64,000 bases of DNA from contig CAYQXM010000015.1 in NCBI GenBank assembly GCA_964421295.1, forward strand, positions 769 through 64,768, read 5' to 3'. Below, piece after piece: positions 1-60,732 of this stretch. Source of the DNA: an uncultured Pirellulales bacterium. GTDB lineage: Bacteria; Planctomycetota; Phycisphaerae; Sedimentisphaerales; Anaerobacaceae. The notes beneath the pieces were generated by a model, which was not told the DNA's origin, ran no database searches, and saw only the letters and a program-made list of their open reading frames with translations. A program made the translations under genes and the position numbers. Within the stretch, counting starts at the first letter, position 1. Every line of letters starts with the position of its first letter.

Positions 1-1831
1 GCCGGTGAGCGCAGTGGCGGTCCAGGACGACGAGGGCATAGGGGTGGCCGCCGAAGGTCTCGTAGGTCTTGAGCTTGGCCTCGAAAGAGGCGCCGCTGAG
101 GCAGGGGAGTCTCTGCATCAGGCCGAGGGCCTCGGGGCGGCTCAGGTCATTCAGCGGGACCTGCTGTATGTCCCCGATGCGGCCGGAATCCAGGTCGAAC
201 AGGTAGCGGGTGGTGAAGAGGAACCGCGTGCCGGTGGCGGTTGTCTTGACCAGCGTCTTGATGAATGTGCTCAGGTTGGGATCGGTGATCTGGTGGCGCT
301 CGCCGTTCTGCGCCGTCAAATGCGTCTCGAAATTGTCGAAGATCAGCAAGAGCGGCCACTGGCTTAGGACTTGTCCGAGAATCGCGCCGAGCTGGTCGGG
401 CGGGACCGATTGGGCGATGAGCTGACCCAATACCTTCACGCCCTGTCTTTCGAAGTACCTGTGCAGTTCCAGCAGAATTGTCTCGGGCGCCAGGGCGGCA
501 CTGGTGCAATCGAAGGCATAGACCCCCTTGAAATTCCTGCGGAGGCGGGTGGCGATGTGACTGATCAGAGCGGTCTTGCCGATGCCGCCGATGCCGTGAA
601 CGATGATGGCGCGATGGTTCTTGGCTACGATCCCATCGCGGACGGCACGGTATTCCTTCCGTCGGCCATAGAAGCCGTAGGCGAGTTGAGGCAAGGGCAG
701 ATGGAAGCTGAAGTCAATCGTCGGCTGCCGGACTGTCCCCGCGTCCGCCGGCTTGGTCGTTTCCAGAGGCCGGCTATGGGCCGCGAGCAGGACCGGGCCA
801 AACGCATCCGCCTGAATCGCGACACGTTCATCGCGCAAGAGGGCCCGGCGGGCGGAACTGACCGCAGTATCGAGCGATTGGCCTTCGACAAGGCGCGGAT
901 AAAGGTTCTCGGCCAAGATCAGGCCTCCCGGATCGGAGATGGAGAACTGCATGGCGAGCGTGGCCGGGATGCCGCGGCGCAACAGGCCGCGAGCCAAATC
1001 CTGAAAACCGCGCACGTTGACGGTCTTGGCTGTCTGGCAGCCGGAAAGGACGACCAGACGCAACGAGTGTTCGGCCTTCTCCAGCGATTGCATGATCTCG
1101 GCAACCGCCGTGGGTCTGCGCTTGCCTTCCGCGTCCTCCAGCAGCAGTCCGCCCCCGCCTTCCGGGGGGATGCCGTGGCCGGAGTAGTGCAGGATATGGC
1201 ATCCGCCCTCCAGACTGCTCTCCAGGACGGGCAACTTCGCCTCGTCCTCCAATTCCAGGATGAGCCTACCCTGTCCCGAAGGGGTGTTCACTCCCTGGAG
1301 CAGGATTTCCTGTTCCTTTTCGATCTGGAGCCGCTGAATCTCCTCCAAGTCCAGCGGGGAGGACATCAGGGCGAGCATCTTCAGGGGCGCGGGTACGGCA
1401 GGCAGGGCATCCTGCACGGGGACGTCCAGGGGCAGCCGGGACACGCCGGTCTTCGCTCCGGCCGCGAGGAATTCCTGCCCATCGTGCAGCGTCTCCCAGG
1501 GGAGCGTCTCCAGGTCCTTCGCTTCGGGCGCAATCCGGATGCACAAGGTCAGGAAATCGCTGGTGTGCCGGGTCTTGTCCCAGAGGTCTTTGATTGCCGC
1601 GGTGAAGACCTTGTCGTAGAGCTTTCGGCCGAAGGCGGTTATTCGCTCCATGCGCCCCTGCGGGTCTCTCTCGTTCGGTTCGAGCTGGTTGATCTCGAAC
1701 TGCGTGAGGTAGGAGAGATCGTACTCGAAAGAGGATTTGGCCAGAGGTTGGCTGTTGTCCCGCCGGAAGACTTCCAAACTGAATGCGTTCCTGTCCGTCT
1801 GCTTGATGTGAAAATCAAGTGTCGTCGTCAT
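1..1831 (-). CDS. CHAT peptidase fused to NB-ARC-like STAND NTPase; N-terminal part only, as the ORF runs off the left edge
   Basis: Absent from the ORF track because no stop is reached. Hand translation of the minus strand from ATG at 1831 gives MTTTLDFHIKQTDRNAF... It contains the CHAT His motif HYSGHG (1172-1189), the Cys motif LSGCQT (~1031-1050), Walker A VHGIGGIGKT (~572-600) and the GxP-like TFGGHPYAL (32-58). All checkpoints share one frame. Plus-strand ORF 371..1897 is its antisense shadow. Confidence 0.8.
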   Translation of the reverse strand, partial: MTTTLDFHIKQTDRNAFSLEVFRRDNSQPLAKSSFEYDLSYLTQFEINQLEPNERDPQGRMERITAFGRKLYDKVFTAAIKDLWDKTRHTSDFLTLCIRIAPEAKDLETLPWETLHDGQEFLAAGAKTGVSRLPLDVPVQDALPAVPAPLKMLALMSSPLDLEEIQRLQIEKEQEILLQGVNTPSGQGRLILELEDEAKLPVLESSLEGGCHILHYSGHGIPPEGGGGLLLEDAEGKRRPTAVAEIMQSLEKAEHSLRLVVLSGCQTAKTVNVRGFQDLARGLLRRGIPATLAMQFSISDPGGLILAENLYPRLVEGQSLDTAVSSARRALLRDERVAIQADAFGPVLLAAHSRPLETTKPADAGTVRQPTIDFSFHLPLPQLAYGFYGRRKEYRAVRDGIVAKNHRAIIVHGIGGIGKTALISHIATRLRRNFKGVYAFDCTSAALAPETILLELHRYFERQGVKVLGQLIAQSVPPDQLGAILGQVLSQWPLLLIFDNFETHLTAQNGERHQITDPNLSTFIKTLVKTTATGTRFLFTTRYLFDLDSGRIGDIQQVPLNDLSRPEALGLMQRLPCLSGASFEAKLKTYETFGGHPYALVVLDRHCAHR

Positions 1832-2087: not shown

Positions 2088-2189
2088 GTGGCACCCCCGC
2101 CCTCGGGGGTGGAGCCCAACTTCCCCAGCCGAGGGCGGCTGGGCCACACACTACCCACTCACTTCCCCAGCCGAGGGCGGCTGGGCTAC
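2088..2189 (+). repeat. REP unit plus an extra half unit (two-hairpin palindromic element)
   Basis: The unit is gtggcacccccgccctcgggggtg...ccccagccgagggcggctgggccac. It has stems caccccc/gggggtg and cccagcc/ggctggg. The second hairpin repeats at 2161-2189. Confidence 0.75.
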
Positions 2190-2675
2190 ATGAACATAGA
2201 GCCACGGGTAGTCCTCAACGCGTTGGCAGAGGCCTTTACGGATCGGGTTTTCGCAGATGTACTGGACCTTGGCGGCCATCGCCTCGTCACGACGGAGCAC
2301 GTGGTCGAAGGATTCATCCTGCCAGACAGGACTCTGGCGGTGAAGGGCACGATTGATCGTGTGCGCGGAGGCACCCTTGATGCTATTGCTGATCTCAGCC
2401 AGAGTGTAGGGGCGGCCATTCGTGTCACATAGAGGCGCGAATACCATGTGCACGTGGTCCGGCATTACGACAGCGCCATGAACGTGAATCTTGATGCCAT
2501 CGTCGTGAAGGCAGTGATTCAAGATCATCGCGCGGATGGATTCGGGCAACACGAGATGCTCATGCGTGCAGAAGGTGAGGAAGATCGTCTTGGCATCGGC
2601 TTGCAGGTGTGGGAGATTGCGACGGTAACGCCTCTTCCCCGGCTTTGCCTGCGGCAGATTTGTCTGATGTGGCAC
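2151..2675 (-). CDS. rayT: REP-associated tyrosine (HUH, IS200/Y1-like) transposase, RayT type
   Basis: Contains RRNLPHLQ...IFLTFCT, the HUH motif PDHVHMVF and the catalytic-Tyr context VQYICENPIRKGL. The start is uncertain: a GTG at 2675 lies inside the right REP, and the track ORF extends to 2885. Confidence 0.7.
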   Translation of the reverse strand: MPHQTNLPQAKPGKRRYRRNLPHLQADAKTIFLTFCTHEHLVLPESIRAMILNHCLHDDGIKIHVHGAVVMPDHVHMVFAPLCDTNGRPYTLAEISNSIKGASAHTINRALHRQSPVWQDESFDHVLRRDEAMAAKVQYICENPIRKGLCQRVEDYPWLYVHVAQPPSAGEVSG

Positions 2676-2729
2676 CCCCGCCCTCGGGGGTGAGTCCTGA
2701 ACTTCCCCAGCCGAGTCCGGCTGGGCCAC
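2669..2729 (+). repeat. REP unit in the same orientation as the left copies, overlapping the 5' end of rayT
   Basis: gtggcacccccgccctcgggggtgagtcctgaacttccccagccgagtccggctgggccac. It matches 2088-2147 except for the inter-hairpin linker and one loop. Confidence 0.75.
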
Positions 2730-2746
2730 ATGAGGCAGCAAGCAAT

Positions 2747-2780
2747 AAAAAAGGAAGGCCGCACCGAAGTGCGGCCTTCC
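2747..2780 (-). terminator. Rho-independent terminator of hppA
   Basis: Perfect 12-bp stem ggaaggccgcac/gtgcggccttcc with loop cgaa. On the minus strand it is followed by a run of six T, 40 nt after the hppA stop. Confidence 0.8.
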
Positions 2781-2818
2781 GGGAATTGACGAGAGGCTGA
2801 GGGGCGCGGGGGCCGGGA

Positions 2819-5380
<2,562 letters not shown>

Positions 5381-5384
5381 CTAC

Positions 5385-5405
5385 CAAAGAAGTATTGATT
5401 ATTGA
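5385..5405. repeat. Heptanucleotide tract (attgatt x3) just upstream of the hppA start
   Basis: attgatt attgatt attgacg. A second tract, atcatcg atcatca attaact, lies at ~5483-5503. Confidence 0.6.
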
Positions 5406-5436
5406 TTATTGACGGCCGACGACCGGCTCCGCCCGC

Positions 5437-5482
5437 GCAGAACTCTTGCGAACCCCGCTTGGGCCGGGGCGGACAACATTGC
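5437..5482. promoter_or_regulatory. Promoter/leader-like module related to the cores of the tandem units at 7876-8480
   Basis: ttgcgaa-[ccccg cttgggc cgggg hairpin]-cggacaacattgccatagtcgc. It shares the ttgcgaa ... gacaa(y)attg..tag..gc layout with the tandem-unit cores. It lies ~60-100 nt upstream of the hppA ATG. Confidence 0.3.
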
Positions 5483-5530: not shown

Positions 5531-6301
5531 TTAGCTGGCCGACGCGGAGCGCCACCAGTGGGCGTGCTGCACCTCCAACTCGCGCAACGGCGGGTAGGGA
5601 TAGAACTTCAGACTCTGCTGGTCGCCCACGAAGAACCCCCGCCGGATGGTCCGGTAGAAGGCGTTCATCGCCGGGGTCCGATTGACCGTCTTGGTCGACT
5701 TGCCTCGGGCGTTCTTCACTTCATTGAGGCACGCCTTGATGTGCATCGGCTCGGTGTACGGCAGATACCCCGCCAAATTCCCCGCGTCATCCTGATCCAG
5801 CAAAAGGTCCGCAAAAAACAGCCGCGGCACACTTACCGCGTTGTTCGAATCCGTCATGAACCGGCAAAACGCCGACGGCGCCAGCGACGAGACCACCTGG
5901 GGCGACACCGGGCACAACTCCTGGTACATGTGCGGTCCCGCGACCTCGCCCCCGGCGTCGTAATCCGCCGCGTCGAGTCCCAGCGTCCTGCCGTCGGCCG
6001 TCGTCAGATACAGCTTGCCGATCACCGACGTGTCCACATGCTCCAGCACCCGGTAAATGCTGATATACTTGCTGCGTTTGGGACTGCCGTCGGGCCGGGG
6101 CACACAACGCGACTGGATGTCGCCGAGCCGGAAATAGTCGCTCTTCAGGCCCGGATCGACCTCGGCGAAGACGACATTCCCCCGACTCAACTTCTGTGTA
6201 CCCACTGCCATATAATGCCCAAACGCTTCTGGCTCCAAATGAGACGCGACTAATGCCTCCAACCGATAACAGAGCAAGTAGTAATGAATGTCCATTGCCA
6301 T
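5531..6301 (-). CDS. Conserved-looking hypothetical protein (256 aa); I recognise no domain
   Basis: ATG at 6301 is preceded by AGGAGG at 7-nt spacing. The amino-acid composition is non-shadow (MAMDIHYYLLCYRLEALV...). Confidence 0.6.
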   Translation of the reverse strand: MAMDIHYYLLCYRLEALVASHLEPEAFGHYMAVGTQKLSRGNVVFAEVDPGLKSDYFRLGDIQSRCVPRPDGSPKRSKYISIYRVLEHVDTSVIGKLYLTTADGRTLGLDAADYDAGGEVAGPHMYQELCPVSPQVVSSLAPSAFCRFMTDSNNAVSVPRLFFADLLLDQDDAGNLAGYLPYTEPMHIKACLNEVKNARGKSTKTVNRTPAMNAFYRTIRRGFFVGDQQSLKFYPYPPLRELEVQHAHWWRSASAS

Positions 6302-6552
6302 TGTCTAACCTCCTGCGGTCGGGCCGCGTATGCGAAGCTAACCTGCATTGCAGAAGACAATCGGAACGGAAAGAGGGTGATTGTATCTGCTTCACGGGGT
6401 CCAGTCAACATCGCTGTGGGTTTTTGCCGACCGCAAAATGCCGCGACCCAATCCCTGTCGCGGACCGTCGCGTCAACGAATTTTGATCCCACATCGGCCA
6501 TCCCGTCCGGTGACCTTCGCCCGCTTCCCGCCCGCACCCGAAAAACGCTCCC

Positions 6553-7719
6553 CTACGGCCCCGGACCCACACCCTCCAGCGGAGCTGGAGGAAATTCGAA
6601 GTACGAAGTTCGAAGCCCGACAACTCCGCCGCAGGCGGACGTCTGTTGCCCGGTGCCGTTCCGGAAACAATGACCAAAACCATAACTCCCCAATAACCAG
6701 AACGGCTCTGCCGCGTCCTGACGCCTCCGTATCTTGTCATGCTGAGCCCCTCGGCTTCGCTCGGGAAAGGCTGCGCGCAGTGAGGTCGAAACATCCGGCC
6801 CCGAACAAGCCATGTCTTGCACTCGCGACCACACGCCTCGACCGGGCTCGGAATGACGGAGAATCGGCGCTGAGTTGTGCTCTGTTTTGAGTTTTGGATT
6901 TCGGATCTTTGAATTTGTTTCGAATTTCGATATTCGGGTTTCGGATTTCAGCGGCCGGGTGGCAGCGGCAAACCCCGTTTGCCGATGGTGCCTCGATACA
7001 ACGGTCAACGTCGCACTCGCTCTGCTATGGGCACAAATCCGCCCTTCCAGCCGGACAATCCGTCCGGTCGCAGGGAAGTTAAGATAGGCAAATTCCCCGA
7101 ACAGCTCCCGGGCTTTTCCATCGTAGGCTTTGGCCGCTTCGATCTCGTCGTCGAACAGGCCGATGAACGTCTGCTGACCCCCCACACGAATACCCGCCTT
7201 CCACTTCCCGTCCTTGTTGCGATACACCCCTTTGAACCTCGACGTTCCCCCCACCGCCGGGCGGTTCCACGCATTCTGGGCCTTGTTGCAGAGCCGCAGA
7301 TTGCACCTGCGATAGTTCAGACTATTCCCGTCGTGGTGGTCTACAAACTTCCCCTCCGGCGGGTTCATGATCAGCCGGTGCATGTAAATGACCTTGTCCT
7401 TCCGCGAGAAACACGCATACGCCTTCCGTCCGGTCGTCGCATGCCACTTGAACCCACTGAGCCACTCATAATCGCTCGCATCGACAATCGCAAACAGCCC
7501 CCGCGTCAGCGGAATATACCGAATGTCGTCGCTGGGCGGCACCGGCGGCTCCAGCCGCAGCGGCGGTGTCGGTTTTGCCCGATAGCTGCGACACCCTTCT
7601 CCCGCCGCAACATAAGAAAGCCGCCCCTCAAACCCCGGCACACAAGCACAAACCAGCTCCCCCGCCCCGCCGTTCCGGATGGTTGTCGCATACACGCACT
7701 CGCCACATTGTCTCGCCAT
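6553..7719 (-). CDS. HNH endonuclease / AP2 DNA-binding domain protein with an anomalous ~170-codon 3' extension
   Basis: ATG at 7719 follows GGAGAGG. An HNH_3-like region (HRLIM...VDHHDGNSLNYRRCNLRLCNKAQN) is followed by an AP2 domain (SRFKGVYRNKDGKWKAGIRVGGQQTFIGLFDDEIEAAKAYD). After ~7074 the frame stays open through repeat-type DNA. Confidence 0.75.
   Translation of the reverse strand: MARQCGECVYATTIRNGGAGELVCACVPGFEGRLSYVAAGEGCRSYRAKPTPPLRLEPPVPPSDDIRYIPLTRGLFAIVDASDYEWLSGFKWHATTGRKAYACFSRKDKVIYMHRLIMNPPEGKFVDHHDGNSLNYRRCNLRLCNKAQNAWNRPAVGGTSRFKGVYRNKDGKWKAGIRVGGQQTFIGLFDDEIEAAKAYDGKARELFGEFAYLNFPATGRIVRLEGRICAHSRASATLTVVSRHHRQTGFAAATRPLKSETRISKFETNSKIRNPKLKTEHNSAPILRHSEPGRGVWSRVQDMACSGPDVSTSLRAAFPERSRGAQHDKIRRRQDAAEPFWLLGSYGFGHCFRNGTGQQTSACGGVVGLRTSYFEFPPAPLEGVGPGP
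6736..6856. repeat. MITE/REP-like element with terminal inverted repeats
   Basis: gtcatgctgagccc (6736-6749) pairs with gggctcggaatgac (6843-6856), 12/14 complementary. It lies inside the 3' tail of the HNH-AP2 ORF. Confidence 0.45.
6884..6953. repeat. Degenerate heptanucleotide tract (~10 units)
   Basis: gttttga gttttgg atttcgg atctttg aatttgt ttcgaat ttcgata ttcgggt ttcggat ttcagcg. A shorter tract, gaaattc gaagtac gaagttc gaagccc, lies at 6591-6618. Confidence 0.6.
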
Positions 7720-7757
7720 GATCGTCGCCTCTCCAAAGGCCCCAGGCTTCAGGCGTC

Positions 7758-7834
7758 AGACCTCAGGCCAACCGAGCTCAACTTCCTCTTTTTCAATCAT
7801 CAATTATCAATCGTCAATAATCAATGCGAGGGCC
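7758..7834. repeat. Degenerate heptanucleotide tract (~11 units in one phase)
   Basis: ttcaggc gtcagac ctcaggc caaccga gctcaac ttcctct ttttcaa tcatcaa ttatcaa tcgtcaa taatcaa. Confidence 0.65.
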
Positions 7835-7837
7835 ACC

Positions 7838-8565
7838 GTGGCCCTCTACAATGGGACGCCGCTAGCCTTATGTTGCTAGAATTCGTGCATTATTACTACA
7901 TCTGTAGAACCGTAAGTCCTTACCCCGTCTGCACTAGAAAAAATCCAAGAATTCTGGAAAAGTGCGCGCAGGACGCTAGCCTTATGTTGCGAAAAACCTA
8001 CGTAGTGCCGACAATTGTAGAGCGCTCCGCCGCGCCACGGAAACTGCGCAAAATGATACTCGGCGTATCACGACAGGCATCAGGCGGTAGGGAGGGGAGA
8101 ACAGGGATCGGGGATCAGGGGGCAGCTATTCAAATCCACCATTAAAACTCAAACATCACACCTCCAAGTCCAACTCAAAACTAAGGACTCAAAACTCAAC
8201 ACTCGGGCCCACCCGTGGGCCCGCCCCGCCTTATGTTGCGAAAAACCTACGTAGTGCCGACAATTGTAGAGCCCTGGGCCGGGCCATGAAGACTGCGCAA
8301 AATGATACCCGCCGTATCACGACAGGCATCGGACCTCAGGCTTCGGGCGTCAGGGTTCTCTCCTCCAACTCAAAACTAAGGACTCAAAACTCAACACTCG
8401 GGCCCACCCGTGGGCCCGCCCCGCCTTATGTTGCGAAAAATCTACGTAGTCACGACAATTGTAGAGGCATCCGCCGGGCCGCGAAAAATGCGCAAAGGGA
8501 TACATCGCATATCAGGGCGGGTTACAGGCTTAAGATCCTTGGCCAGAGGATGGTACCAACCCATT
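7838..8565. repeat. 3.5 tandem units (spacings 114, 249 and 195 bp) of a conserved core + hairpin + heptad module
   Basis: The core ccttatgttgcgaaaaacctacgtagtgccgacaattgtagagc starts at 7990, 8239 and 8434, with a diverged copy at 7876. GC hairpins lie at 7838-7856 (gagggccac/gtggccctc) and at 8215-8232 and 8410-8427 (gggcccac/gtgggccc). A second block, ctgcgcaaaatgatacNNNNNgtatcacgacaggcatc, carries hairpins at 8065-8079, 8314-8328 and 8509-8523. Confidence 0.8.
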
Positions 8566-8579
8566 CTGCGACTCTGCCG

Positions 8580-9212
8580 TCAGGTCACATTTTGGGCCCA
8601 TCCTGGCGGTGGCCATGCGCCACAGGTGGTCCCCAGCGCACCTGCGAGATCGCCCACACACTTCACCATCTTGCGGAAGGAACGGGAGAAAGTGTAGGCA
8701 GCAGCCAAGTCAAAACTCGCCGTTAGCGACGCTTGATCTGCGGTTTCGTGGTAGGATCGGTTCTTGGGCATGTATTCCTCCAATGCCTCCTTGGCACCGC
8801 GTCGTCCTTCGAAGTTCGCCATTGTGGCTGCGTCCGCGCGAATGCCACACTTCCCACGGAGAGACTCAATCGCTGCCAGGAACCAAGTCTCATATTCGCG
8901 ATAGGCCAAAACCGCGAAACAGGGCATGGCGCCCGCAACAGCCTGTGCCCATCCAAGGATCATTGGGGCAAGATCTTTCGGGCATGAGTCATCGGAGTCA
9001 AACAAAAGCAGAATGGAGGCACATTGCGGTTGAAGTAACGCAAGCCGGACAGCGGTTTGCACACCGGTTTGCGTATGGAGTTCAGACCTTTTTCTGCGAA
9101 TCGGCCTCGCGACGCCAATATCGAACAATCCCGCCTCAGTGAAGAGACGGCGAAGCAACACAGGCACAGCTTGGACATCGCCGTGCCCCTCCACAATCGG
9201 TTGGACGTTCAT
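8580..9212 (-). CDS. DUF4276-like small protein with TOPRIM-like acidic motifs
   Basis: N-terminus MNVQPIVEGHGDVQAVPVLLRRL, then LLLFDSDDSCP (a Glu ... DxD pattern). Its ATG overlaps the stop of the upstream ATPase gene by 4 nt (9209-9212). The family assignment is from memory only. Confidence 0.6.
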   Translation of the reverse strand: MNVQPIVEGHGDVQAVPVLLRRLFTEAGLFDIGVARPIRRKRSELHTQTGVQTAVRLALLQPQCASILLLFDSDDSCPKDLAPMILGWAQAVAGAMPCFAVLAYREYETWFLAAIESLRGKCGIRADAATMANFEGRRGAKEALEEYMPKNRSYHETADQASLTASFDLAAAYTFSRSFRKMVKCVGDLAGALGTTCGAWPPPGWAQNVT

Positions 9213-10405
9213 TCCAGTGCCTCAAAGAGACTCCCTTCTGCAAGTTCACGAGAGTCGCTGAAGAGCGGTGCCGGGTGCATTGCGTTGGATCGGAGCAACT
9301 CTCCCGCGCCCATCAGGTGTTGAGTCATTGCCTGCCGCGAAGCATCATCTGGTCGCAGAATGTGAGAAGCCCCTTCGTGCCAAACGACAATTCGTAAATG
9401 CTGATCCTCGATCCATTCAGCATCCAGTAGTTCGGGACTGTGTGTCGTGACAATAACCTGCATGGATCGACTGGCATGGCGAATCAAATCGAGAACGGCA
9501 CCTAAGGCACCCGGGTGGATTGTGGCCTCAGGTTCTTCGATAACAAGTACTGAGGGCCGAGGAGACTGAAATACAGCCATTAGAAGGCCTAATGCCCTGA
9601 GCGTGCCATCCGACATGTTGAACGCTTCGAACAACAGTTTCTTGCCGGACGCCCATTCTTGCGTGAACTCAAGCGACAGTTTGTTGCCATGTTTCTTGGG
9701 CTTCACGGATGTAGTGTTGGGCACAATCGACTCTAGAATCTCCTGAACTCTGTCTTTCGTCTTTGAATCGCTACGCCCGATCTCCTGGAGGACACTTGCT
9801 GCATTTCCACCGTCCCTCCGGAGAACAGAACCACTATCTGGGTCCTGCATCTCTCGTAATCTGGAGGGCTCGATGGAGTATACCCGCATAGCACTGAGTG
9901 CCTTTAGGAGAGGCGCAAAGCGTTCATCGCCACCAATGACTGGGAGGGTCAGGGCCGAAGCTTCTACCGAAGGCTTCAGACCCTCAGCGTTCGTCCGAAA
10001 TGACTTCTGGCGGTCGAACCACCATCGTATACCGTCCGCATAGCGAACCTGACATTGCTCTCTGACAACCTCGAACCCATATCCGGGGAGCGCCTTGACT
10101 TCAAACGCAAAACGCCCTCCTTTTACTCTGCCGTTCATCTCACCAAACTCAAAGGCTAATCCTAGGTTTGGGGGATAGCTGCGTCCAGAGCTCCGATTTC
10201 GAACCACAGAAATGCCGCCGCGTCTGTCAAAGACAGCTTGCAGGGGAGAGAGCATTGCTTCCGCCACGAAGCTGAACAAGTCCGCAAAATTGCTTTTGCC
10301 AGCACCGTTCCGCCCAACCAGGAAGACGGGATTGCTGAAATCAACAACGTCCGAAGGGAAACTCCGGAATCGCTTAACAATGACCCTCTTCACAACGCAT
10401 GTCAT
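9209..10405 (-). CDS. ABC/SMC-type ATPase (AAA_15/AAA_21-like)
   Basis: Walker A GRNGAGKSN, ABC signature-like MSDGTLRALGLL, Walker B VLVIEEPEATIHP and H-loop VTTHSP. Hand-sampled lines give 48-53% GC, lower than the neighbours. Confidence 0.8.
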   Translation of the reverse strand: MTCVVKRVIVKRFRSFPSDVVDFSNPVFLVGRNGAGKSNFADLFSFVAEAMLSPLQAVFDRRGGISVVRNRSSGRSYPPNLGLAFEFGEMNGRVKGGRFAFEVKALPGYGFEVVREQCQVRYADGIRWWFDRQKSFRTNAEGLKPSVEASALTLPVIGGDERFAPLLKALSAMRVYSIEPSRLREMQDPDSGSVLRRDGGNAASVLQEIGRSDSKTKDRVQEILESIVPNTTSVKPKKHGNKLSLEFTQEWASGKKLLFEAFNMSDGTLRALGLLMAVFQSPRPSVLVIEEPEATIHPGALGAVLDLIRHASRSMQVIVTTHSPELLDAEWIEDQHLRIVVWHEGASHILRPDDASRQAMTQHLMGAGELLRSNAMHPAPLFSDSRELAEGSLFEALE

Positions 10406-10632
10406 GTTTCACCTTAGCACAGCTAGGGGGTGCATGCCTAACAACGGTCTTCGTTTATTTATAGAATAGTGCCCTTGCGATAGAAAAGCCAGTGCCAGTG
10501 TAAGATGATTTCAATTCCCTCGTTCTGTGCTCCGCAAGAGGCGACAACGTGGGTCTGTCGTTATCTGTCCCAAGTCACGACGACGCCCGCAATTCGGCGA
10601 GAATCAAATCCCAAATCCGGAACGGGACGGTG

Positions 10633-11835
10633 TCAGGTATTTCTTTCTCGCGGGAAGAACGGTCTGATGTCGCCGTTGCCGATGAGGCTGTTCAGGATTG
10701 TGAAGTTGCCGGTCTCGTAGCGGATGCGACCGGCGGGGATGGCGGGGTTGATGTGGAGTTCTTCCGCGAACTTCTTCACCCTTGCAGGTTCGGGATTGGT
10801 GACCAGTCCGGCGGCACGCCAGAGTTTGCCGGGGATGAGCCCGTTGCGCGCCATTCGGTCCGCTTCCTGCTCCTGGATGGACAAGTCGGACACATTCAAG
10901 TCATCGAAGAAACTCTGATCTACACCGACGTGCAAGTGCTTCGCCACATGAGCGATCTCGTGCGCCAGCGTGAACCAGAAATTGTCCGATCGGTCAAATC
11001 TCAGCGTCAGGGCAATCAAGGGCTTCCCATCCGGCATGAGCATGGCCGCCCCGTCAAGATAGGTGTTGGGCAGGTGCGATTCGATGACAAGATAGATACC
11101 ACACTTACTGAGAAGTTCCTTCGCCAGCAATGGCCCCCGGTCAAAGTAACTCAGCTTCGCTATCTCACGAATCAAGTCCCGGCCGACGGAGTCGGGCTCG
11201 TAGTCACTGACACTCTGCGATCGAGCCAGGTGCATGACACGTAGCCGCCATGCCAAGAGCGCATACGTGTCGGTAGCTCCCCCTTGGCGCACATGCTGAC
11301 GCATGCGCGCCGGTATGAGAAGCTCATCGCCAAATGGCTGAATGAACGACCTCATGATCTTCTCCGCGCACGCCCTGGCTTCCCGCACGGTGCCCTTGAA
11401 ACTGATCCATTCCCGCTTCAGCATATCGGCAATCGGAAACCGATCCCACTCCAGGGTCTGCTCCGAGAGAGTCACGGCTTCGGGGTCGCCGATGAGCACT
11501 TCCGCCGGAATGCCCAGACCGCGATGCAGATTCCTGATCATAGACAGGCTGAGTTGACGCTTGCCGGCCAACACCTCGGACACTTTGCTGGCGCTCCCGA
11601 TGAACGGGATCAGATCCTTCTGGCGCAGTCTCTGCTGCTCCATACGGAATTTCAGGGCTTCCAGAGGATCAGGCATCTCAATAGGATAATGTTGCTCCTC
11701 ATATACCGAGACCAGCGTCGTCCACAAATCAAGCTCTTCGCCCTCGGGCGTATCGGGCTCGGCATCCATGAGCTGCGTGATGCGGGCCAGAGCCGTCTCA
11801 TACTCTGCTTCGGTATGGATCGTTTTGGGCTTCAT
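10633..11835 (-). CDS. higA: HigA-type HTH antitoxin fused to an ImmA/IrrE-family Zn-metallopeptidase domain
   Basis: HigA-like N-terminus and HTH (LRQKDLIPFIGSASKVSEVLAGKRQLSLSMIRNLHRGLGIP). C-terminal HExxH motif LAHEIAHVAKH. ATG at 11835 overlaps the higB TGA by 1 nt; the track start at 11838 is a TTG. Confidence 0.8.
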   Translation of the reverse strand: MKPKTIHTEAEYETALARITQLMDAEPDTPEGEELDLWTTLVSVYEEQHYPIEMPDPLEALKFRMEQQRLRQKDLIPFIGSASKVSEVLAGKRQLSLSMIRNLHRGLGIPAEVLIGDPEAVTLSEQTLEWDRFPIADMLKREWISFKGTVREARACAEKIMRSFIQPFGDELLIPARMRQHVRQGGATDTYALLAWRLRVMHLARSQSVSDYEPDSVGRDLIREIAKLSYFDRGPLLAKELLSKCGIYLVIESHLPNTYLDGAAMLMPDGKPLIALTLRFDRSDNFWFTLAHEIAHVAKHLHVGVDQSFFDDLNVSDLSIQEQEADRMARNGLIPGKLWRAAGLVTNPEPARVKKFAEELHINPAIPAGRIRYETGNFTILNSLIGNGDIRPFFPRERNT

Positions 11836-12128
11836 CAAACAGTCTCCACGTTGATTCTATCGTACTCCGTGTGAGTACCCATATAACGGACTTGTGCAAT
11901 GCCCAGGCCGTAGTTCAACTTCACCACGAGCCGGTATTTGTTGCCGCAGATGTTGAACACCACCCTGTTGCCTCCGACGATGCTCGCGCTGCCGAACTTG
12001 GCCTTCACCTCGTTGGGCGAATGCCATCGGGCATTCTTGACCTCTGCGTGCCACGCTCTCAGTGCTTGCTCGCAATCAGGATACTTCCTGCGAAACGCGT
12101 CCAAAACACTCTTGCCAACAAGCCGCAT
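11835..12128 (-). CDS. higB: HigB-family type II toxin (mRNA interferase)
   Basis: MRLVGKSVLDAFRRKYPDCEQALRAWHAEVKNARWHSPNEVKAKFGSASIVGGNRVVFNICGNKYRLVVKLNY is typical of the HigB toxin family. I prefer ATG at 12128 (AAGGGA upstream) over the longer track ORF. Confidence 0.8.
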   Translation of the reverse strand: MRLVGKSVLDAFRRKYPDCEQALRAWHAEVKNARWHSPNEVKAKFGSASIVGGNRVVFNICGNKYRLVVKLNYGLGIAQVRYMGTHTEYDRINVETV

Positions 12129-12143
12129 TTCATTATTCCCTTT

Positions 12144-12185
12144 TTGGGAACTCCTGTCAATAGAATATACATAATATTGGGAACT
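12144..12185 (-). promoter_or_regulatory. AT-rich promoter region flanked by direct repeats ttgggaact (candidate HigA operator)
   Basis: ttgggaact occurs at 12144-12152 and 12177-12185. The repeats bracket tcctgtcaatagaatatacataata; the minus strand carries TTGACA and AT-rich -10 candidates. Confidence 0.35.
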
Positions 12186-12469
12186 TTTGTTCGCTGCGGT
12201 TGCCGAAAACCACCGACCGTCAGTATGACATGTGTAACCTCCCGCAAATCCAAGACATACGAGAGCATCCCACAGCAATACCACTGCCGATCATCTGGCA
12301 GAGACTGAGGATTGCGAACAGTCCCCTACTTCCGGCCTTGATCGATTCCATGCCTCCAAAACCGTCGCGCTCAAACCATATGGACCATTGTAGAGAAGGG
12401 GCTTGTCGGAGGCAAAGGGAAAAGGGGAGAAGTGACAAGAGACAGGCAACATGAGTAACGGTCCAGCAG

Positions 12470-12796
12470 TCAGTGGCCGGCCTTCTCGTGGAGGCAATAA
12501 AACACGAGGATGGCGGCGGGGAGGAAGAGCAGGAGCCAACCCATCAATTTGACGGCCCAGCCGGGGGAAGTCGAGGAGACCAGTCCGCACTTGGCACCGA
12601 CCAGGCCCTCGCCCAATTCGTCGCCCCACCAGATGCACCCGATACTGAGCGCCAGCCAGAAGCCCGCGCCCAACAGACCCTCAAAGAGGTCCTTAGGAGA
12701 CATCGGCTCCGAGGAGGGGCCGGTCAGGAAACAGGCGACCGCGATCACCGCGTAGATAACCACCACCGCTAACGAAATCCACCGCGAGATATCCAT
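12470..12796 (-). CDS. Small integral membrane protein (3 predicted TM segments)
   Basis: MDISRWISLAVVVIYAVIAVACFL... Hydrophobic segments alternate with short loops. Confidence 0.5.
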   Translation of the reverse strand: MDISRWISLAVVVIYAVIAVACFLTGPSSEPMSPKDLFEGLLGAGFWLALSIGCIWWGDELGEGLVGAKCGLVSSTSPGWAVKLMGWLLLFLPAAILVFYCLHEKAGH

Positions 12797-13001
12797 ATCA
12801 GTGAGAAAGTGACAGTCACTTGTTCCGGTTCTTGGTCAATTCGGTGCCTCCAAGACCGCCATGCTCAATACCACCACCCCTATTGTAGCGGACGGGCCTG
12901 CGGGAGGCAATCTGTTCCTGCGCGTGCCAAAAGCACTTGACGTCGTCGGTGGACCATGGGACAATGTAGTCACATGATTGCTCTGTGTTGGAGGCTCGGA
13001 A

Positions 13002-13331
13002 ATGGCAGGTCAGAAGAAGACGCAAGGGTTCAAGTGGTATTGGCTCCTCGATTTCGCTCCGTTCTTCAGTATCCTGTACCCGTTACACCTTGCGCTCATT
13101 CATACCCTTGGCCTCTTTTGGCGAGGCCGGGTTCTGTTCTTCGCTGCCTTTGCTCCCTTCGTCCTCGTTGTCTACGTCATGCAGTTCCGCGTGAGGAAGC
13201 GCATCGACGCCCATGCGGTTCCCGCCCCTCTATACTTCACGTTGTTCTGGATGATCGTTTTTGTCGTGGAAGTCCTGCTGAGGGATCTGGTGTTGGATAC
13301 GTCCACCTACATTTGGGGCAGCGTCAAATGA
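13002..13331 (+). CDS. Small integral membrane protein
   Basis: ATG at 13002 follows GGAGG. Contains several hydrophobic helices (FAPFFSILYPLHLALIH, VLFFAAFAPFVLVVYVM, LYFTLFWMIVFVV). Confidence 0.5.
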   Translation: MAGQKKTQGFKWYWLLDFAPFFSILYPLHLALIHTLGLFWRGRVLFFAAFAPFVLVVYVMQFRVRKRIDAHAVPAPLYFTLFWMIVFVVEVLLRDLVLDTSTYIWGSVK

Positions 13332-13484
13332 CTCTCGCCTGGCGGAAGGTATCCGCGTCTGCGCTGCCACGCAGCTTCCCTTGACACCGCCGGATAAAAG
13401 GCCTACAATAGTCGTAAATTGCAGGTGGACGGTGGTCTGGCGGGAGCACTGTCGCAACGAAGCTTTCTAACGGGAGGATCGATC

Positions 13485-14558
13485 ATGCACATCGGGCTGG
13501 GCAGCGCACAGCGAGTGACAATCGTCGCCATTCTTCTTCTGGGTTCGGGCGCGGGGTGGGCGCAGACGGTCACCTCGGCCTCGTTCGGCAAGACGGCGGG
13601 CGGGGTGGACGTGACGTGTTACACGTTGACCAACGCACACGGCCTCAAGGCGAAGGTGATCGAGTATGGGGCCACGCTGATCGCGCTGGAGGTGCCCGAC
13701 CGCGACGGCAAGCTCGCCAATATCGTACGCGGCTACGATAATCTGGCCTCGTACGTCTCGAACGCCTGGGTCGGCTCGACCGTCGGGCGCTACGCCAATC
13801 GCATCGCCAACGCCAGATTCACGCTGGACGGCATCGAGTACCGCCTCACCGCCAACTCCGGGGGCCACCAGCTCCACGGCGGCAGCGTGAAGGGCTTCCA
13901 CAACGTCGTCTGGCACGGCTATCCCTACCAGACCGAGGCGGAGGCCGGCGTGCGCCTGACGCACGAGAGTCTCGACGGCGAAGAGGGCTACCCGGGCAAC
14001 CTCACCGTCACGGTGACTTACGCGCTGACCAACGACAACGAGCTGCGTATCGACTACGGCGCCACGACGGACAAGCCCACCGTCATCAACCTGACGAACC
14101 ACAGCTACTTCAATCTCGCCGGCTACGGCACGGGTGACATCCTCGCCCACGAGATCATGATCAACGCCAACTGGTACACCGCCGCGTCGGCGGACAAGAT
14201 CCCGACGGGCGAGATCCTCACCGTCAGCGGCGGGCTGGATCTCCGCACGCCGCGGCTCGTCGGTTCCGTGATCTCGAGCGTGAATCGGGAGCAGCAGTAC
14301 GACCACAACTACGTCCTGAACCGCACGTACGGCGCGTTGGTCCTCGCGGCGAGCGCCTACGATGGGAAGAGCGGACGGCTGATGGAGTGCTACACCGATC
14401 AGCCGGGGATGCAGTTCTATACGGGCGACAAGTCGGCCTTCTGCTTCGAGACGCAGCACTTCCCCGATTCCCCGAACAAGCCGCACTTCCCCTCGACCGA
14501 GCTGCGTCCCGGCGGCAAGTTCGAAAGCACCACCGTCTGCAAGTTCTCCACGAAATAG
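13485..14558 (+). CDS. galM: Aldose 1-epimerase (galactose mutarotase), secreted
   Basis: Signal peptide MHIGLGSAQRVTIVAILLLGSGAGWAQT. Mutarotase motifs GRYANRIANARFTLDG..Y.L..N.G.HQLHGG and INLTNHSYFNL. ATG at 13485 follows GGGAGGA. Confidence 0.88.
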   Translation: MHIGLGSAQRVTIVAILLLGSGAGWAQTVTSASFGKTAGGVDVTCYTLTNAHGLKAKVIEYGATLIALEVPDRDGKLANIVRGYDNLASYVSNAWVGSTVGRYANRIANARFTLDGIEYRLTANSGGHQLHGGSVKGFHNVVWHGYPYQTEAEAGVRLTHESLDGEEGYPGNLTVTVTYALTNDNELRIDYGATTDKPTVINLTNHSYFNLAGYGTGDILAHEIMINANWYTAASADKIPTGEILTVSGGLDLRTPRLVGSVISSVNREQQYDHNYVLNRTYGALVLAASAYDGKSGRLMECYTDQPGMQFYTGDKSAFCFETQHFPDSPNKPHFPSTELRPGGKFESTTVCKFSTK

Positions 14559-18984: not shown

Positions 18985-19049
18985 GGAAGTCCTAAGTTTT
19001 GAGTGTTGAGTCCTAAGTTAACTTAGGACTGAGGACTCAGAACTCAGGA
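18985..19049. repeat. Degenerate heptanucleotide tract filling most of an 82-nt intergenic gap
   Basis: ggaagtc ctaagtt ttgagtg ttgagtc ctaagtt aacttag gactgag gactcag aactcag. It uses the same word family as 8183-8217. Confidence 0.6.
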
Positions 19050-19772
19050 CTAATTCAGAGTGATATCTTTGATCGGGTCGCCCTTTTCATCGATGAAACG
19101 GACACAGAAATCGCTCAAGCCGGGGCCGTTGATGACGGCGCCGCGAATGACGTTGCGTCCCTGGTTGAGCGTGAGGCGCTTGGAGACGCCATCATCCATG
19201 ACCATGCGCCGATCGCCGAAGAGGGTGACGGCTTCCTGGCCGTTGAGCCACCACATGGACGCCGAGTTGGAGCCGGCAGCCAGGCGCACGTTCAGCATCT
19301 CGCGCGGGCTGTCGACGACCGTCACGGCCCAGAACAGAACGCCATACTCCGGCTTGTTCAAGCCGTAAGCGAAACGAAAGAGCTTGACGTTCCAGGTCGT
19401 CGAGTCCAGGGCATGCCAGGCGAGCGGCGTGTCGGCCACCGTCACCGTGTCGCCGTCATGCGGCACGACGGTGAACTGGTCGGGGAAGTATTCGGCGTTG
19501 AACGTGCTCCGGATGAAGCTCTCATTGAATCCCGTATTGCTGCGGATCGACTGCTTGATCGGCTCGAGCAGCAGCCAGCGCTGGAGGAAGCCGTCGGGGT
19601 CCGGCGCCTTGGCGCCTGCGGTAGCCGGCGTGAAGTACGGCGCGAGGCTGCGACCCGCGGCACCGGTCGCGGAGTCGCCCACCGCCCGGCCCGGCGCAGC
19701 GGAGCAACCCTGAAACGCCAACACGATCAGAACGGCGGATACCGGCAGTACGATGGAGCGGAGTGTGTTCAT
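19050..19772 (-). CDS. Secreted lipoprotein with a jelly-roll (galactose-binding-like) domain, function unknown
   Basis: MNTLRSIVLPVSAVLIVLAFQGCSA lipobox. The C-terminal pattern LAAGSNSASMWWLNGQEA resembles sugar-binding jelly-roll modules. Confidence 0.55.
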   Translation of the reverse strand: MNTLRSIVLPVSAVLIVLAFQGCSAAPGRAVGDSATGAAGRSLAPYFTPATAGAKAPDPDGFLQRWLLLEPIKQSIRSNTGFNESFIRSTFNAEYFPDQFTVVPHDGDTVTVADTPLAWHALDSTTWNVKLFRFAYGLNKPEYGVLFWAVTVVDSPREMLNVRLAAGSNSASMWWLNGQEAVTLFGDRRMVMDDGVSKRLTLNQGRNVIRGAVINGPGLSDFCVRFIDEKGDPIKDITLN

Positions 19773-55327: not shown

Positions 55328-55475
55328 GATCCCACTCCTCGAACATTGAGACTCCCGCCAGGCGGACACAACGTCCATCCTCAATGACGCCCTCCAACGC
55401 TCATGAGCATCACCTTTTACTAAACGCAGCGACACGGCCGGCGTTTCAATTTTCGCCCGGAAATGTGCTGATTGT
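55328..55475 (-). repeat. Inter-paralog spacer, copy 3 (complete)
   Basis: Near-identical to 57282-57416 apart from a 13-14 nt indel (tcatgagcatcac). Confidence 0.8.
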
Positions 55476-57281: not shown

Positions 57282-57416
57282 GATCCCACTCCTCGAACAT
57301 TGAGACTCCCGCCAGGCGGACACAGTGTCCATCCTCAATGACGCCCTCCAACGCCTTTACTAAACGCAGTGGCATGACCGGCGTTTCAATTTTCTACCCC
57401 GAAATCTGCCAACTAG
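57282..57416 (-). repeat. Inter-paralog spacer, copy 4 (complete)
   Basis: See copy 3. Confidence 0.8.
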
Positions 57417-60691: not shown

Positions 60692-60732
60692 GACCTGTTC
60701 CTTTCCTATATCTGTTTGGACTCCCATCAGGT

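Follow-up and report, generated by a model that had tools for sequence, protein, structure and literature searches.

Tandem copies of a predicted control region upstream of an HNH-AP2 nuclease gene at the edge of a defence island

Repression through a DNA loop between two operators is known from gal, in which OE and OI lie ~114 bp apart, and from lac, in which O1 and O3 are separated by 92 bp. NsiR1 of Anabaena forms a tandem small-RNA array in cyanobacteria, in which STRR-like heptanucleotide tandem repeats also occur. The homing endonuclease I-TevI represses its own promoter via an operator (PMC2988022). Here we compare these systems with a repeat array found in a window of 64 kb, by which we mean the whole stretch of DNA analysed. 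Alignment with relatives indicates that the array arose by local multiplication of a conserved non-coding region, the predicted control region of the HNH-AP2 nuclease gene beside it, of which the relatives carry one copy.

Like I-TevI, the product of this gene is a nuclease with a separate DNA-binding domain, and its ORF is directly preceded by a conserved site-like sequence and by a putative regulatory hairpin in the leader. I-TevI, however, is a GIY-YIG enzyme that resides in a phage intron and has one operator overlapping a late promoter, whereas the present protein combines HNH and AP2 domains, its gene is chromosomal and syntenic, and the putative binding sites are two boxes 113 bp apart. 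With the gal and lac loops, the locus shares two like sites ~11 turns apart, A/T-rich DNA between them and a spacing that is kept while the sequence drifts. By contrast, the sites here are direct repeats without clear dyad symmetry, the distance of 113-114 bp corresponds to ~10.8 turns at 10.5 bp per turn, which is not an integer, and both the promoter and the repressor are predictions. As in NsiR1 arrays, tandem units that combine a -10-like element with a hairpin occupy an intergenic region and precede a gene of like orientation, but there are only two to three units of unequal length, with no U-run terminators and no Rfam match, relatives have a single copy, and any transcripts of the units are putative. 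As with STRR sequences, short 7-nt tandem tracts are confined to intergenic DNA and often lie beside hairpins; here, the phylum is another one, the contig having the appearance of Phycisphaerae (Planctomycetota), the heptads are different and mostly contain a stop codon, and the tracts form a positioned part of the leader rather than being dispersed within the 64 kb.

An earlier note on this DNA had described the array, and it is indeed present in the sequence, far above chance. A 36-nt core, TTGCGAAAAACCTACGTAGTGCCGACAATTGTAGAG, occurs exactly at 7987-8022 and 8236-8271 and with three mismatches at 8431-8466, and no match to it was found in shuffled sequence. CCTTATGTTGCGAAAAA, which forms the left end of the core, is found at 7980, 8229 and 8424 and, in diverged form, at 7866; the start positions given in the note are therefore ~10 nt too high. 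A repeat search of the window returned a 158-nt family at 7920, 8169 and 8364 (spacings 249 and 195). Three GATAC-N5-GTATC blocks (the last reading GATAC...ATATC), six heptad tracts and three GC hairpins, one of them GAGGGCCA/TGGCCCTC and two GGGCCCA/TGGGCCC, belong to the same stretch (Table 1). Because the flanking genes all have minus-strand orientation, the array constitutes the region upstream of HNH-AP2. The array is non-coding, as had been proposed: none of the five ORFs overlapping it has a Pfam match, and relatives differ by indels of 1 and 2 nt, not multiples of three. An open frame common to the window and L025 across the module was rejected as coding, because 1-2-nt indels in L021 and L023 break it.

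Table 1. Positions of the array, its parts and the flanking genes in the window (the gene sense is the minus strand).
Feature	Position	Strand	Description
HEC-01-like candidate defence pair	8580-10405	-	ABC ATPase 9209-10405; DUF4276/TOPRIM 8580-9212; upstream neighbour, outside the module
Whole non-coding stretch, DUF4276 stop codon to HNH-AP2 start codon	7720-8579	-	HNH-AP2 upstream module, repeated 3.5 times in tandem
Unit u3, shortened	8418-8530	-	GATAT-N5-GTATC palindrome 8499-8513 (gene sense); TACAAT 8458-8463; one box 8424-8445
GC stem-loop closing u3	8399-8418	-	GGGCCCA-CGGG-TGGGCCC; allele type shared with L025
Heptad tracts	8323-8399	-	GAGTTTT type 8367-8399; CCTGANG type 8323-8358; GGAGGAGAG stretch between
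Unit u2, shortened	8223-8335	-	GATAC-N5-GTATC 8304-8318; TACAAT 8263-8268; one box 8229-8250
GC stem-loop closing u2	8204-8223	-	Same sequence as the 8399-8418 stem-loop
Heptad tracts between u2 and u1	8086-8204	-	GAGTTTT type 8172-8204; C-rich type 8102-8120
Unit u1	7974-8085	-	Upstream half of the ancestral module; parts in the next rows
Parts of u1		-	GATAC-N5-GTATC 8055-8069; GTATCATTTTGCGCAG block; variable 17-18-nt spacer; TACAAT 8014-8019
Box 1 in u1	7974-7996	-	TTTTTCGCAACATAAGGCTAGCG in gene sense
Inter-box segment	7883-7973	-	Weak AT hairpin 7944-7958; T-run 7938-7943 (gene sense); GGACTTAC 7912-7919; CTACAGATGTAG 7896-7907
Box 2	7860-7882	-	Matches box 1 at 17/17 positions over GCAACATAAGGCTAGCG; direct repeat, 114 bp further downstream in gene sense
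ATTGTAGAGG element and GC stem-loop	7828-7852	-	Element 7843-7852, running into GAGGGCCA-CGG-TGGCCCTC 7828-7846
Leader	7720-7827	-	ATTGATN heptads 7793-7825; CCTGANG heptads 7737-7769; ribosome-binding site GGAGAGG 7728-7734
HNH_3 + AP2 nuclease gene	6553-7719	-	4-Cys N-terminal extension; conserved part ~residues 1-225; ORF continues through heptads

The same non-coding module occurs in a single copy upstream of the HNH-AP2 gene in seven relatives (L021, L023, L025, L026, L027, L109 and L118), whose HNH-AP2 genes are 49-87% identical to that of the window and whose modules gave nhmmer E values of 1e-35 to 1e-78. Our sample comprised eight loci representing five independent box types; ~2000 homologues exist. 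None of the relatives fetched has an array, the module being single even beside differing upstream genes. In the window, the nhmmer module profile gave one full match and two partial ones (u2 and u3). Read in the sense of the gene, the module begins with a conserved block, GTATCATTTTGCGCA, followed by a variable spacer of constant length, TACAAT and box 1. Counted from box 1, there follow a T-run at ~+50 (starting at +48 to +53 in 8/8 loci), a CTTAC block at ~+77, box 2 at +112 to +115 and ATTATAGAGG at ~+142, and then the GC stem-loop, the heptad-rich leader and the ribosome-binding site. The T-run lies ~15 bp off the midpoint between the boxes, and the ATTATAGAGG-type element, counted on the sequences, ~26-30 nt after the start of box 2. 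L027, L109 and L118 have no TACAAT ahead of box 1. The succession of conserved, variable and conserved segments at constant length gives the module a promoter-like appearance. Of the two orientations offered in the earlier note, the stacking of minus-strand elements upstream of HNH-AP2 proved the closer, since the module travels with this gene in all eight loci and five box types. Neither the module nor any paired repeat was present in the 80 phage homologues examined (0/80), so the module goes with the cellular family that bears the N-terminal extension.

The two boxes, each 17-22 nt long, are spaced by 114, 114, 113, 114, 115, 113, 112 and 114 bp across the eight loci, with the sequence between them largely turned over. 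Within a locus, the boxes agree at 13-17 of 17 positions (16-17 in six loci, 13 in L021 and L025). They are alike within a lineage and differ between lineages: both L023 boxes end in TAGCA, both window boxes read ACATAAGG, and L026, L027, L109 and L118 are each distinguished by a 17-21-nt pair of their own. GCAAC(A) occurs in most boxes and is absent from L118 (GCAG) and L026 (GCAAT). As in a pair of operators, the sites are alike at 8/8 loci and their distance is fixed at 112-115 bp despite the turnover between them. Such concerted evolution implies that the two boxes often exchange sequence, and identical boxes could also stem from gene conversion between repeats, without protein binding. 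A box pair occupies the same place in every family member and is therefore not an insertion scar. The boxes do not fit a sigma-54 promoter either; the GG-N10-GC rule held in L109 only, the others having CG or the wrong spacing.

In the encoded protein, HNH_3 scored 30.6 bits, above the cut-off, and AP2 23 bits, below it; in the predicted structure, the AP2 domain was modelled confidently and matched the solved AP2 domains 7et5 and 1gcc, with the plant TEM1/RAV AP2 domain as the best match. The HNH motif is intact, and D127, H128, N140 and N149/N152 are invariant. With both domains present and the catalytic D-H...N...N kept, sequence and structural model place the protein among the homing-endonuclease-like HNH_3 + AP2 proteins. 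Exact-protein look-ups for the DUF4276 product and the 388-aa HNH-AP2 product of the window returned nothing on record. The binding of RAV1 to CAACA is assigned to its AP2 domain. The likeness of the boxes to this CAACA motif, bound by RAV1 (PMC6315318), serves here as an analogy.

The explanation that we favour, at slightly less than an even chance, is that the array is a local multiplication of the HNH-AP2 cis-regulatory region and that the boxes are predicted operators for one protein. Two identical boxes would serve as operators for a single sequence-specific DNA-binding protein, and the most likely binder would be the nuclease's own AP2 domain, by which the enzyme would repress its gene in the manner of I-TevI. 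The boxes would bracket the promoter of the gene at a fixed distance of ~11 turns, which would suit a DNA loop such as that of gal OE/OI, and the GC stem-loop would work in the leader RNA of the sense strand, by stabilising or pausing. Recombination at the identical cores would have added the shortened units u2 and u3 at the edge of the variable defence island, where they would supply the gene with additional weak promoters in its own sense and/or with further operator (decoy) sites; u2 and u3, missing half the module, may also do nothing.

We then considered where transcription might start, using as a sigma-70 criterion TTGACA-16..18-TATAAT with at least 9/12 matches, A2 and T6. The scan called no site in 7720-8579; it called one at 6408-6380(-) and four in 12200-13500. 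The two promoters proposed in the earlier note (TTGCGA-17-GACAAT on the plus strand and TACAAT on the minus strand) each reach 8/12 and went uncalled, and they do not seem to be positionally kept beyond the window's own clade: only the window, L023 and L025 retain the sense TACAAT and the antisense GACAAT, L021 speaks for the sense site, and L026, L027, L109 and L118 have neither. TACAAT in the units is preceded by a poor -35 (TTCCGT, CTTCAT or TTTCGC), whereas good local promoters read TTGNNN-17-TACAAT. The -10-like elements of the module are the weak CTTAC and TACAAT. Because no sigma-70-like promoter is positionally kept in all lineages, the place of the promoter relative to the boxes is a guess. 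A literature search on planctomycete promoter motifs gave nothing useful.

In each lineage, the GC stem-loop lies 0-3 nt after AGAGG; the stems are unrelated (z -1.5 to -5.9), and the stem-loops contain five G.U wobbles in the sense strand and zero in the antisense strand. The pairing-preserving change noticed earlier in these hairpins thus extends across lineages, which place quite different stems at one position. The GATAC hairpin, said to keep its stem while its loop changed, does so among the three recent copies and L023 only; it shows no compensatory change and no covariation among aligned relatives, and in L021 and L025 the 5' arm is broken, with the 3' arm GTATCA in place. A clean terminated RNA of ~60 nt, also suggested in the note, is not borne out by the GC hairpins, which lack a following U run; no minus-strand terminator was called at them, and their tails read GAGUGUUGAG... 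or GCAUUGAUUA... A weak AT hairpin followed by U6-7 lies in the inter-box segment in about half of the lineages only: in the window, L021, L025 and L109, the T-run comes straight after a small hairpin, and none abuts it in L023, L026 and L118. Rfam 15 gave no match across the window at the gathering score and none in 7600-8700 at E<=1. Six modules folded jointly as RNA gave a weak consensus (-9.9 kcal/mol), with mostly invariant or G.U pairs and no long-range helix, and single-unit folds had z values of -0.45 to -1.46, except for a 46-nt segment with the u2 palindrome (z -2.25). A long-range helix between CTCTACAAT in the core and ATTGTAGAG beside the hairpin was rejected, its complementarity being lost in L021 and L023.

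These data bear on the possibility that the units are tandem small-RNA genes on the minus strand, each starting at TACAAT and ending at the next hairpin to give a 65-75-nt RNA containing the box, with the extra units raising the dose. TACAAT is the usual -10 of the contig's strong sigma-70-like sites and is kept in u1-u3, L023 and L025, and TAGACT in L021 keeps the critical A2 and T6; the four hairpins directly before a T-run lie ~75 nt downstream, the 35 nt after TACAAT are the best-conserved part of the unit, and the wobble asymmetry points to use of a sense-strand RNA. We nevertheless consider such genes unlikely, given the 8/12 site with its poor -35, the lineages with no TACAAT or no hairpin abutting the T-run, the u2 and u3 GC hairpins followed by GAGUGUUGAGUUUUGAG and no U run, folding no better than that of shuffles (z -0.45 to -1.34) and the lack of an Rfam match even at E<=1; the RNA would, moreover, be identical and not complementary to the mRNA leader.

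Comparison of the units with each other and with relatives indicates that, in the window, u1+u0 is the ancestral module, and that u2 and u3 are shortened extra units with the hairpin and heptads of another allele. The tails of u2 and u3 match the L025 allele at 36/42 positions, and the u0 tail matches the L026 allele at 44/54. Each of u2 and u3 retains the conserved block, TACAAT, one box, the GC stem-loop and heptads; missing from both are the inter-box segment, box 2 and the ATTATAGAGG element. This lack, the single modules of the relatives fetched and the incipient decay of u3 (6-7/17 differences in its first block and one G.U in its palindrome) would all suit a recent neutral duplication without function of its own, with only the gene-proximal u1+u0 mattering. 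Against it, the core differs between units at 1-4 of 44 nt and the adjoining spacer at 7-8 of 23 nt (Fisher p 0.002-0.04), and cores of u2 and u3 that stay nearly identical to that of u1 beside diverged spacers suggest constraint or ongoing conversion; together with conservation in the relatives, these differences bear out the constraint on the core that the earlier note had seen. We rate neutrality, too, as unlikely.

Synteny with the relatives stops exactly at the upstream edge of the module. Beyond the break, the window has a defence island with HEC-01 and PD-Lambda-2, whereas the upstream genes in relatives are Vsr, DUF4928 and NOV_C in L023 and Tox-REase-7 in L112. Since relatives hold other genes there, the link drawn earlier between the array and the ATPase/DUF4276 pair comes down to adjacency. 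This arrangement raises the possibility that the units are scars or attachment-like sites, left as partial module copies each time HNH-AP2 cut the boxes and recombination captured a foreign cassette. The position of the array at the break, the differing defence- or toxin-like genes, the foreign hairpin and heptads of u2 and u3 (which resemble box 1/box 2 recombinants minus the inter-box segment), the exchange implied by concerted box evolution and the conserved HNH catalytic residues all fit. We hold this to be quite improbable, however, because the 64 kb contain no second module, be it at the other end of the island or at any other place, the island contains no integrase or recombinase, and the relatives fetched have a single module even where their upstream genes differ; in addition, the HNH-AP2 gene is vertically syntenic with hppA and so is not visibly mobile. 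An attL/attR pair around the island was rejected for want of a second module copy in the window. A still more speculative reading, which we consider very unlikely, makes the two-box module the DNA substrate of a domesticated HNH-AP2 nuclease, through which a single chromosomal site would stay open to recombination and serve as a platform for capturing defence cassettes, with the array units recording successive captures; the boxes would then co-evolve with the AP2 domain of the nuclease.

We regard as highly improbable the plus-strand reading of the earlier note, in which TTGCGA-17-GACAAT fires away from HNH-AP2 to give 150-200-nt RNAs ending at the GC hairpin, the last unit running antisense to the 3' end of DUF4276. 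Such a promoter could possibly form a bidirectional pair with the minus-strand TACAAT. In its favour, TTGCGA suits the local -35 flavour (TTGCNN), GACAAT is the -10 of one 9/12 site elsewhere (12937-12965) and L023 and L025 share the promoter site with the window, but it scores 8/12 and was uncalled, its 17-nt 'spacer' is as conserved as the hexamers, which implies another constraint, L021 lacks the critical T6 (GACAAG), L026 has GATCTC at -10 and L027, L109 and L118 have no site, the GC hairpins are followed by GCCCCGCC and no U on the plus strand, and the sense G.U wobbles become A-C mismatches in a plus-strand RNA.

Two classes of repeat were rejected. The array is not a CRISPR array, its units being 195-249 nt long and homologous along most of their length, and its neighbours being HEC-01, PD-Lambda-2 and HNH-AP2, with no cas genes. 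Nor is it a MITE or insertion sequence: blastn and the nhmmer profile found no further module copies elsewhere in the 64 kb, and the array had no match in the plasmid and phage DNA collections. The core pattern TTGCGAAAA-N15-ACAATTGTAG had 2 matches in the genome collection (Eubacterium) and 18 in metagenomes, mostly human gut, which we attribute to chance because none extends past the pattern.

The array itself is ordinary, the edge of a defence island having gained two further copies of a predicted control region. The fixed upstream layout in a cellular HNH-AP2 family, apparently of Phycisphaerae, is undescribed; it comprises a pair of self-identical boxes separated by 112-115 bp, a T-run at a set position and a stem-loop of changing sequence. 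Few targets are known for bacterial AP2 domains, and a candidate target sequence adjoins each HNH-AP2 gene, so binding specificity is directly testable. Self-regulation or cutting of the boxes, if true, would explain both the harmlessness of a homing-type nuclease in the chromosome and the variation between relatives at the adjacent site.

Two further sequences had been connected with the array. The 'related module' upstream of hppA (5437-5482) is unrelated, having only TTGCGA in common with the units, and was recovered neither by blastn of the array against the window nor by the nhmmer module profile. The word attgtagag at 12387-12395 is real but is not a copy of a unit; it supplies the -10 of a sigma-70-like site with 9/12 matches (TTGCCT-17-TACAAT), which precedes the PD-Lambda-2 genes on the minus strand.

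The genes flanking the array (7720-8579) all lie on the minus strand, and between 6 and 14 kb the GC content drops to 55-58%, versus 62-65% in the rest of the window. PADLOC models identified the ATPase/DUF4276 pair as HEC-01 A/B and the two genes after it as PD-Lambda-2 A/B. Gene orientation, island systems and GC dip together mark the array as the region upstream of HNH-AP2, on the border of a defence island. The only published test of HEC-01, a candidate ABC-ATPase/TOPRIM system, saw no protection (bioRxiv 10.1101/2024.01.29.577857). The island (8580-12284, minus strand) holds a HEC-01-like ABC ATPase and DUF4276/TOPRIM pair and a PD-Lambda-2-like pair of HigB-type toxin and M78 peptidase. 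A gene beside hppA (2151-2885, minus strand; also L023, a relative's locus, 10286-10735) has a weak match to an IS200-like Y1 transposase domain.

Coordinates of genes and repeat elements in and around the array
Feature	Position	Strand
AAA_21/ABC ATPase	9209-10405	-
DUF4276	8580-9212	-
HNH_3+AP2 ORF	6553-7719	-
256-aa protein, family unassigned	5531-6301	-
hppA, H+-pyrophosphatase	2819-5380	-
36-nt core, exact copies	7987, 8236	
36-nt core, three mismatches	8431	
Left end of core	7980, 8229, 8424; diverged copy 7866	
GATAC-N5-GTATC blocks	8055-8069, 8304-8318, 8499-8513	
GC hairpins of array	7828-7846, 8204-8223, 8399-8418	
Heptad tracts	array 7737-7769, 7793-7825, 8102-8120, 8172-8204, 8323-8358, 8367-8399; upstream of hppA 5393-5412	

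The core, GATAC blocks, heptads and GC hairpins described by the earlier note were all found at 7720-8579; its core copies are real, but its positions for them were ~10 nt too high. Its interpretation was supported in part: for the array as non-coding, under constraint and stacked upstream of HNH-AP2. The 36-nt core, TTGCGAAAAACCTACGTAGTGCCGACAATTGTAGAG, whose left end is CCTTATGTTGCGAAAAA, had no match in 100 shuffles. It belongs to a 158-nt repeat family with spacings of 249 and 195 nt, and the array has six heptad tracts.

A search using the 225 conserved residues of HNH-AP2 gave ~2000 homologues. By source names, the closest annotated ones are from Sedimentisphaerales and Phycisphaerales, which makes Phycisphaerae the probable origin of the contig. 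We compared relatives' contigs with HNH-AP2 identities of 49-87%. The closest clade (loci L021, L023/L024 and L025) shares synteny of the gene with hppA, and BLAST aligned the DNA upstream of the gene there to 8070-7720 of the window, covering unit u1 and the "diverged copy" u0. The same layout occurs in more distant members: L026, L027/L028, L109-L117 (adjoining tatD-dnaG) and L118, which comes from a complete Phycisphaerales genome of 6.5 Mb. An nhmmer profile of this module matched all these relatives (E 1e-35 to 1e-81). Its matches in the window were one full and two partial (u2 and u3), with no other within 64 kb, leaving the "related module" once proposed near hppA unsupported. The profile found no module in any of 80 phage homologues, and 0/80 had a paired repeat upstream of the gene. 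Readings of the array as a CRISPR array, small coding ORFs, a sigma-54 promoter or, given no further profile match in 64 kb, a MITE were unsupported, as was any Rfam family. In the P0069 loci (L109-L117, positions 152-1100), ~1 kb upstream of the module lacks called genes and carries GAGATAC and CGGATCA heptad tracts; L112 alone has a called Tox-REase-7 fragment.

Counted in gene sense from the start of box 1, the module comprises box 1 (17-22 nt, TTTCGCA-N6-GTGCAAC type; TTTCGCAAC-NN-AAGGCTAGCG in the window's clade), a T-run that begins at +48 to +53, a CTTAC block around +77 and box 2 at +112 to +115 (114, 114, 113, 114, 115, 113, 112 and 114 in eight loci). A ATTATAGAGG-type element follows ~26-30 nt past the start of box 2, with a GC stem-loop 0-3 nt from it and then a leader, which in L026 and the window's clade is rich in heptads. 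The inter-box sequence is largely replaced between lineages; its length is constant. Boxes 1 and 2 are the same or almost the same within a lineage and different between lineages: both are ACATAAGG in the window, both end in TAGCA in L023, and each of L026, L027, L109 and L118 has a pair of its own. By sequence comparison, this pattern is concerted evolution. As far as our searches show, the two-box module is undescribed. At ~5670 in L023, CTACATCTGTAG replaces the CTACAGATGTAG of the window (7896-7907), L021 and L025; the 4-nt centre of this small palindrome is exactly inverted, as template switching in a hairpin would give.

Our preferred reading, held tentatively and at a little under an even chance, is that the module is the nuclease gene's control region. 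The boxes would be operators at a fixed distance of ~11 turns, most likely bound by the nuclease's own AP2 domain; the stem-loop would act within the leader RNA; and recombination would have produced the extra units, which would add weak promoters or decoy operators. The proposed self-binding resembles I-TevI, which represses its own promoter via an operator (PMC2988022). As an event, the array is unremarkable; the underlying two-box module merits a binding test.

The HNH-AP2 family keeps the HNH residues D127, H128, N140, N149 and N152 and has a four-Cys N-terminal extension, past which (near residue 45-78) most tblastn matches to phage homologues start. In the AlphaFold model (pLDDT 86), I-HmuI weakly matched the HNH part, and the best solved matches of the AP2 domain were plant AP2 domains, led by TEM1 (38% identity), a RAV-family factor. 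CAACA is the motif of RAV1's AP2 domain, and GCAAC(A) is present in most boxes. By analogy with CAACA binding by RAV1 (PMC6315318), this similarity would be a lead linking the AP2 domain to the boxes. The ORF runs ~160 codons beyond the AP2 domain (6553-7045, minus strand), crossing heptads at 6892-6949. The tails of relatives P0003, P0004 and P0006 are similar, being likewise of low complexity and ending in ...ENVGPGP against ...EGVGPGP in the window, so the tail may be translated.

A GC-rich stem occupies the same position in every lineage with unrelated sequences (z -1.5 to -5.9), among them GAGGGCCA/UGGCCCUC, GGGACCGC/GCGGUCCC, GGCGCCU/GGGCGCC, GGCGGA/UUCGCC and a 14-bp stem in L025. There are five sense-strand G.U wobbles (one each in L027, L109 and the u3 palindrome, two in L118) and none possible in the antisense strand only, which says that the region would work as sense-strand (minus-strand) RNA; the claimed covariation of the GC hairpins thus held. 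Tandem small-RNA genes on the minus strand are an improbable reading. No U run follows the GC stems checked in any lineage, which makes them resemble stem-loops of a leader, not terminators, and a suggested terminated 60-nt RNA found no support. Both arms of the GATAC hairpin are intact only in the three window copies and L023. The 5' arm is broken without compensation in L021 (CACAC...GTATC) and L025 (TATAC...TTATC), leaving the covariation claimed there unsupported, and across these copies and loci we found no evidence of a selected RNA stem; the 3' arm and following GTATCATTTTGCGCA are conserved at the sequence level.

Units u2 and u3 retain the conserved block, TACAAT, one box, the GC stem-loop and heptads, lack the inter-box segment, second box and ATTGTAGAGG element, and have the appearance of box1/box2 recombinants. 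In stem-loop and heptads they match the L025 allele (36/42), and the gene-proximal tail matches that of L026 (44/54), not L025's. Judged by these two tail types, the array is a mosaic, excluding simple in-place duplication. Units differ at 1-4 positions in the 44-nt core versus 7-8 in the 23-nt spacer (Fisher p 0.002-0.04), and this low core divergence fits constraint or continuing conversion alike. Neutral duplication is exactly as improbable as small-RNA genes. Nuclease targets or recombination scars from island capture are slightly less probable again. Synteny with relatives ends exactly at the module's upstream edge, and the genes beyond differ (e.g. Vsr, DUF4928 and NOV_C in L023); because relatives carry other genes there, the proposed tie to the ATPase/DUF4276 pair finds no support.

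A promoter scan called no sigma-70-like site in the array; elsewhere it called TTGACT-17-TACAAT at 6408-6380(-) and four sites in 12200-13500. Good local sites usually have TACAAT as -10, normally with a TTGNNN -35. A usable local promoter consensus, TTG(A/C)NN-16/17-TACAAT, is shared by good promoter-like sites at 6380-6408, 12387-12415, 12882-12910, 13381-13409, 31944 and 39894. The word attgtagag, noted earlier at 12387, is present but explained by a TTGCCT-17-TACAAT site at 12415-12387(-). Within the units, the sense (TTTCCG-18-TACAAT) and antisense (TTGCGA-17-GACAAT) candidates both score 8/12. L023 and L025 keep both, in L021 the critical -10 bases survive at the sense site (TAGACT) and are lost at the antisense one (GACAAG), and neither site occurs in L026, L027, L109 or L118. 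The stretch from conserved block to TACAAT varies in sequence at constant length, as in a promoter, whereas the 17 nt separating TTGCGA and GACAAT show the same conservation as the hexamers, unlike a promoter. On this difference we tend to favour the sense site, as a candidate clade-specific promoter; promoters firing along the plus strand are the least probable reading.

In gene sense, a stop codon recurs every 7 nt in most heptad tracts, at 7737-7769, 7793-7825, 8172-8204, 8323-8358, 8367-8399 and 5393-5412 (UGA in AUUGAUN, GAGUUUU and CCUGANG; UAA upstream of hppA), so three repeats close all three frames before the downstream start codon; L021, L023, L025 and L026 share this pattern. At 18990-19050, a long inverted repeat of AGTCCTN-type heptads occupies the whole 82-nt interval separating two minus-strand genes and directly precedes a GGGAGG ribosome-binding site. 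Identical or nearly identical 50-nt stretches at ~54431, 56373 and 61645 (minus strand) lie within a run of ~600-aa ORFs (53534-62541), suggesting that these genes are paralogues in tandem.
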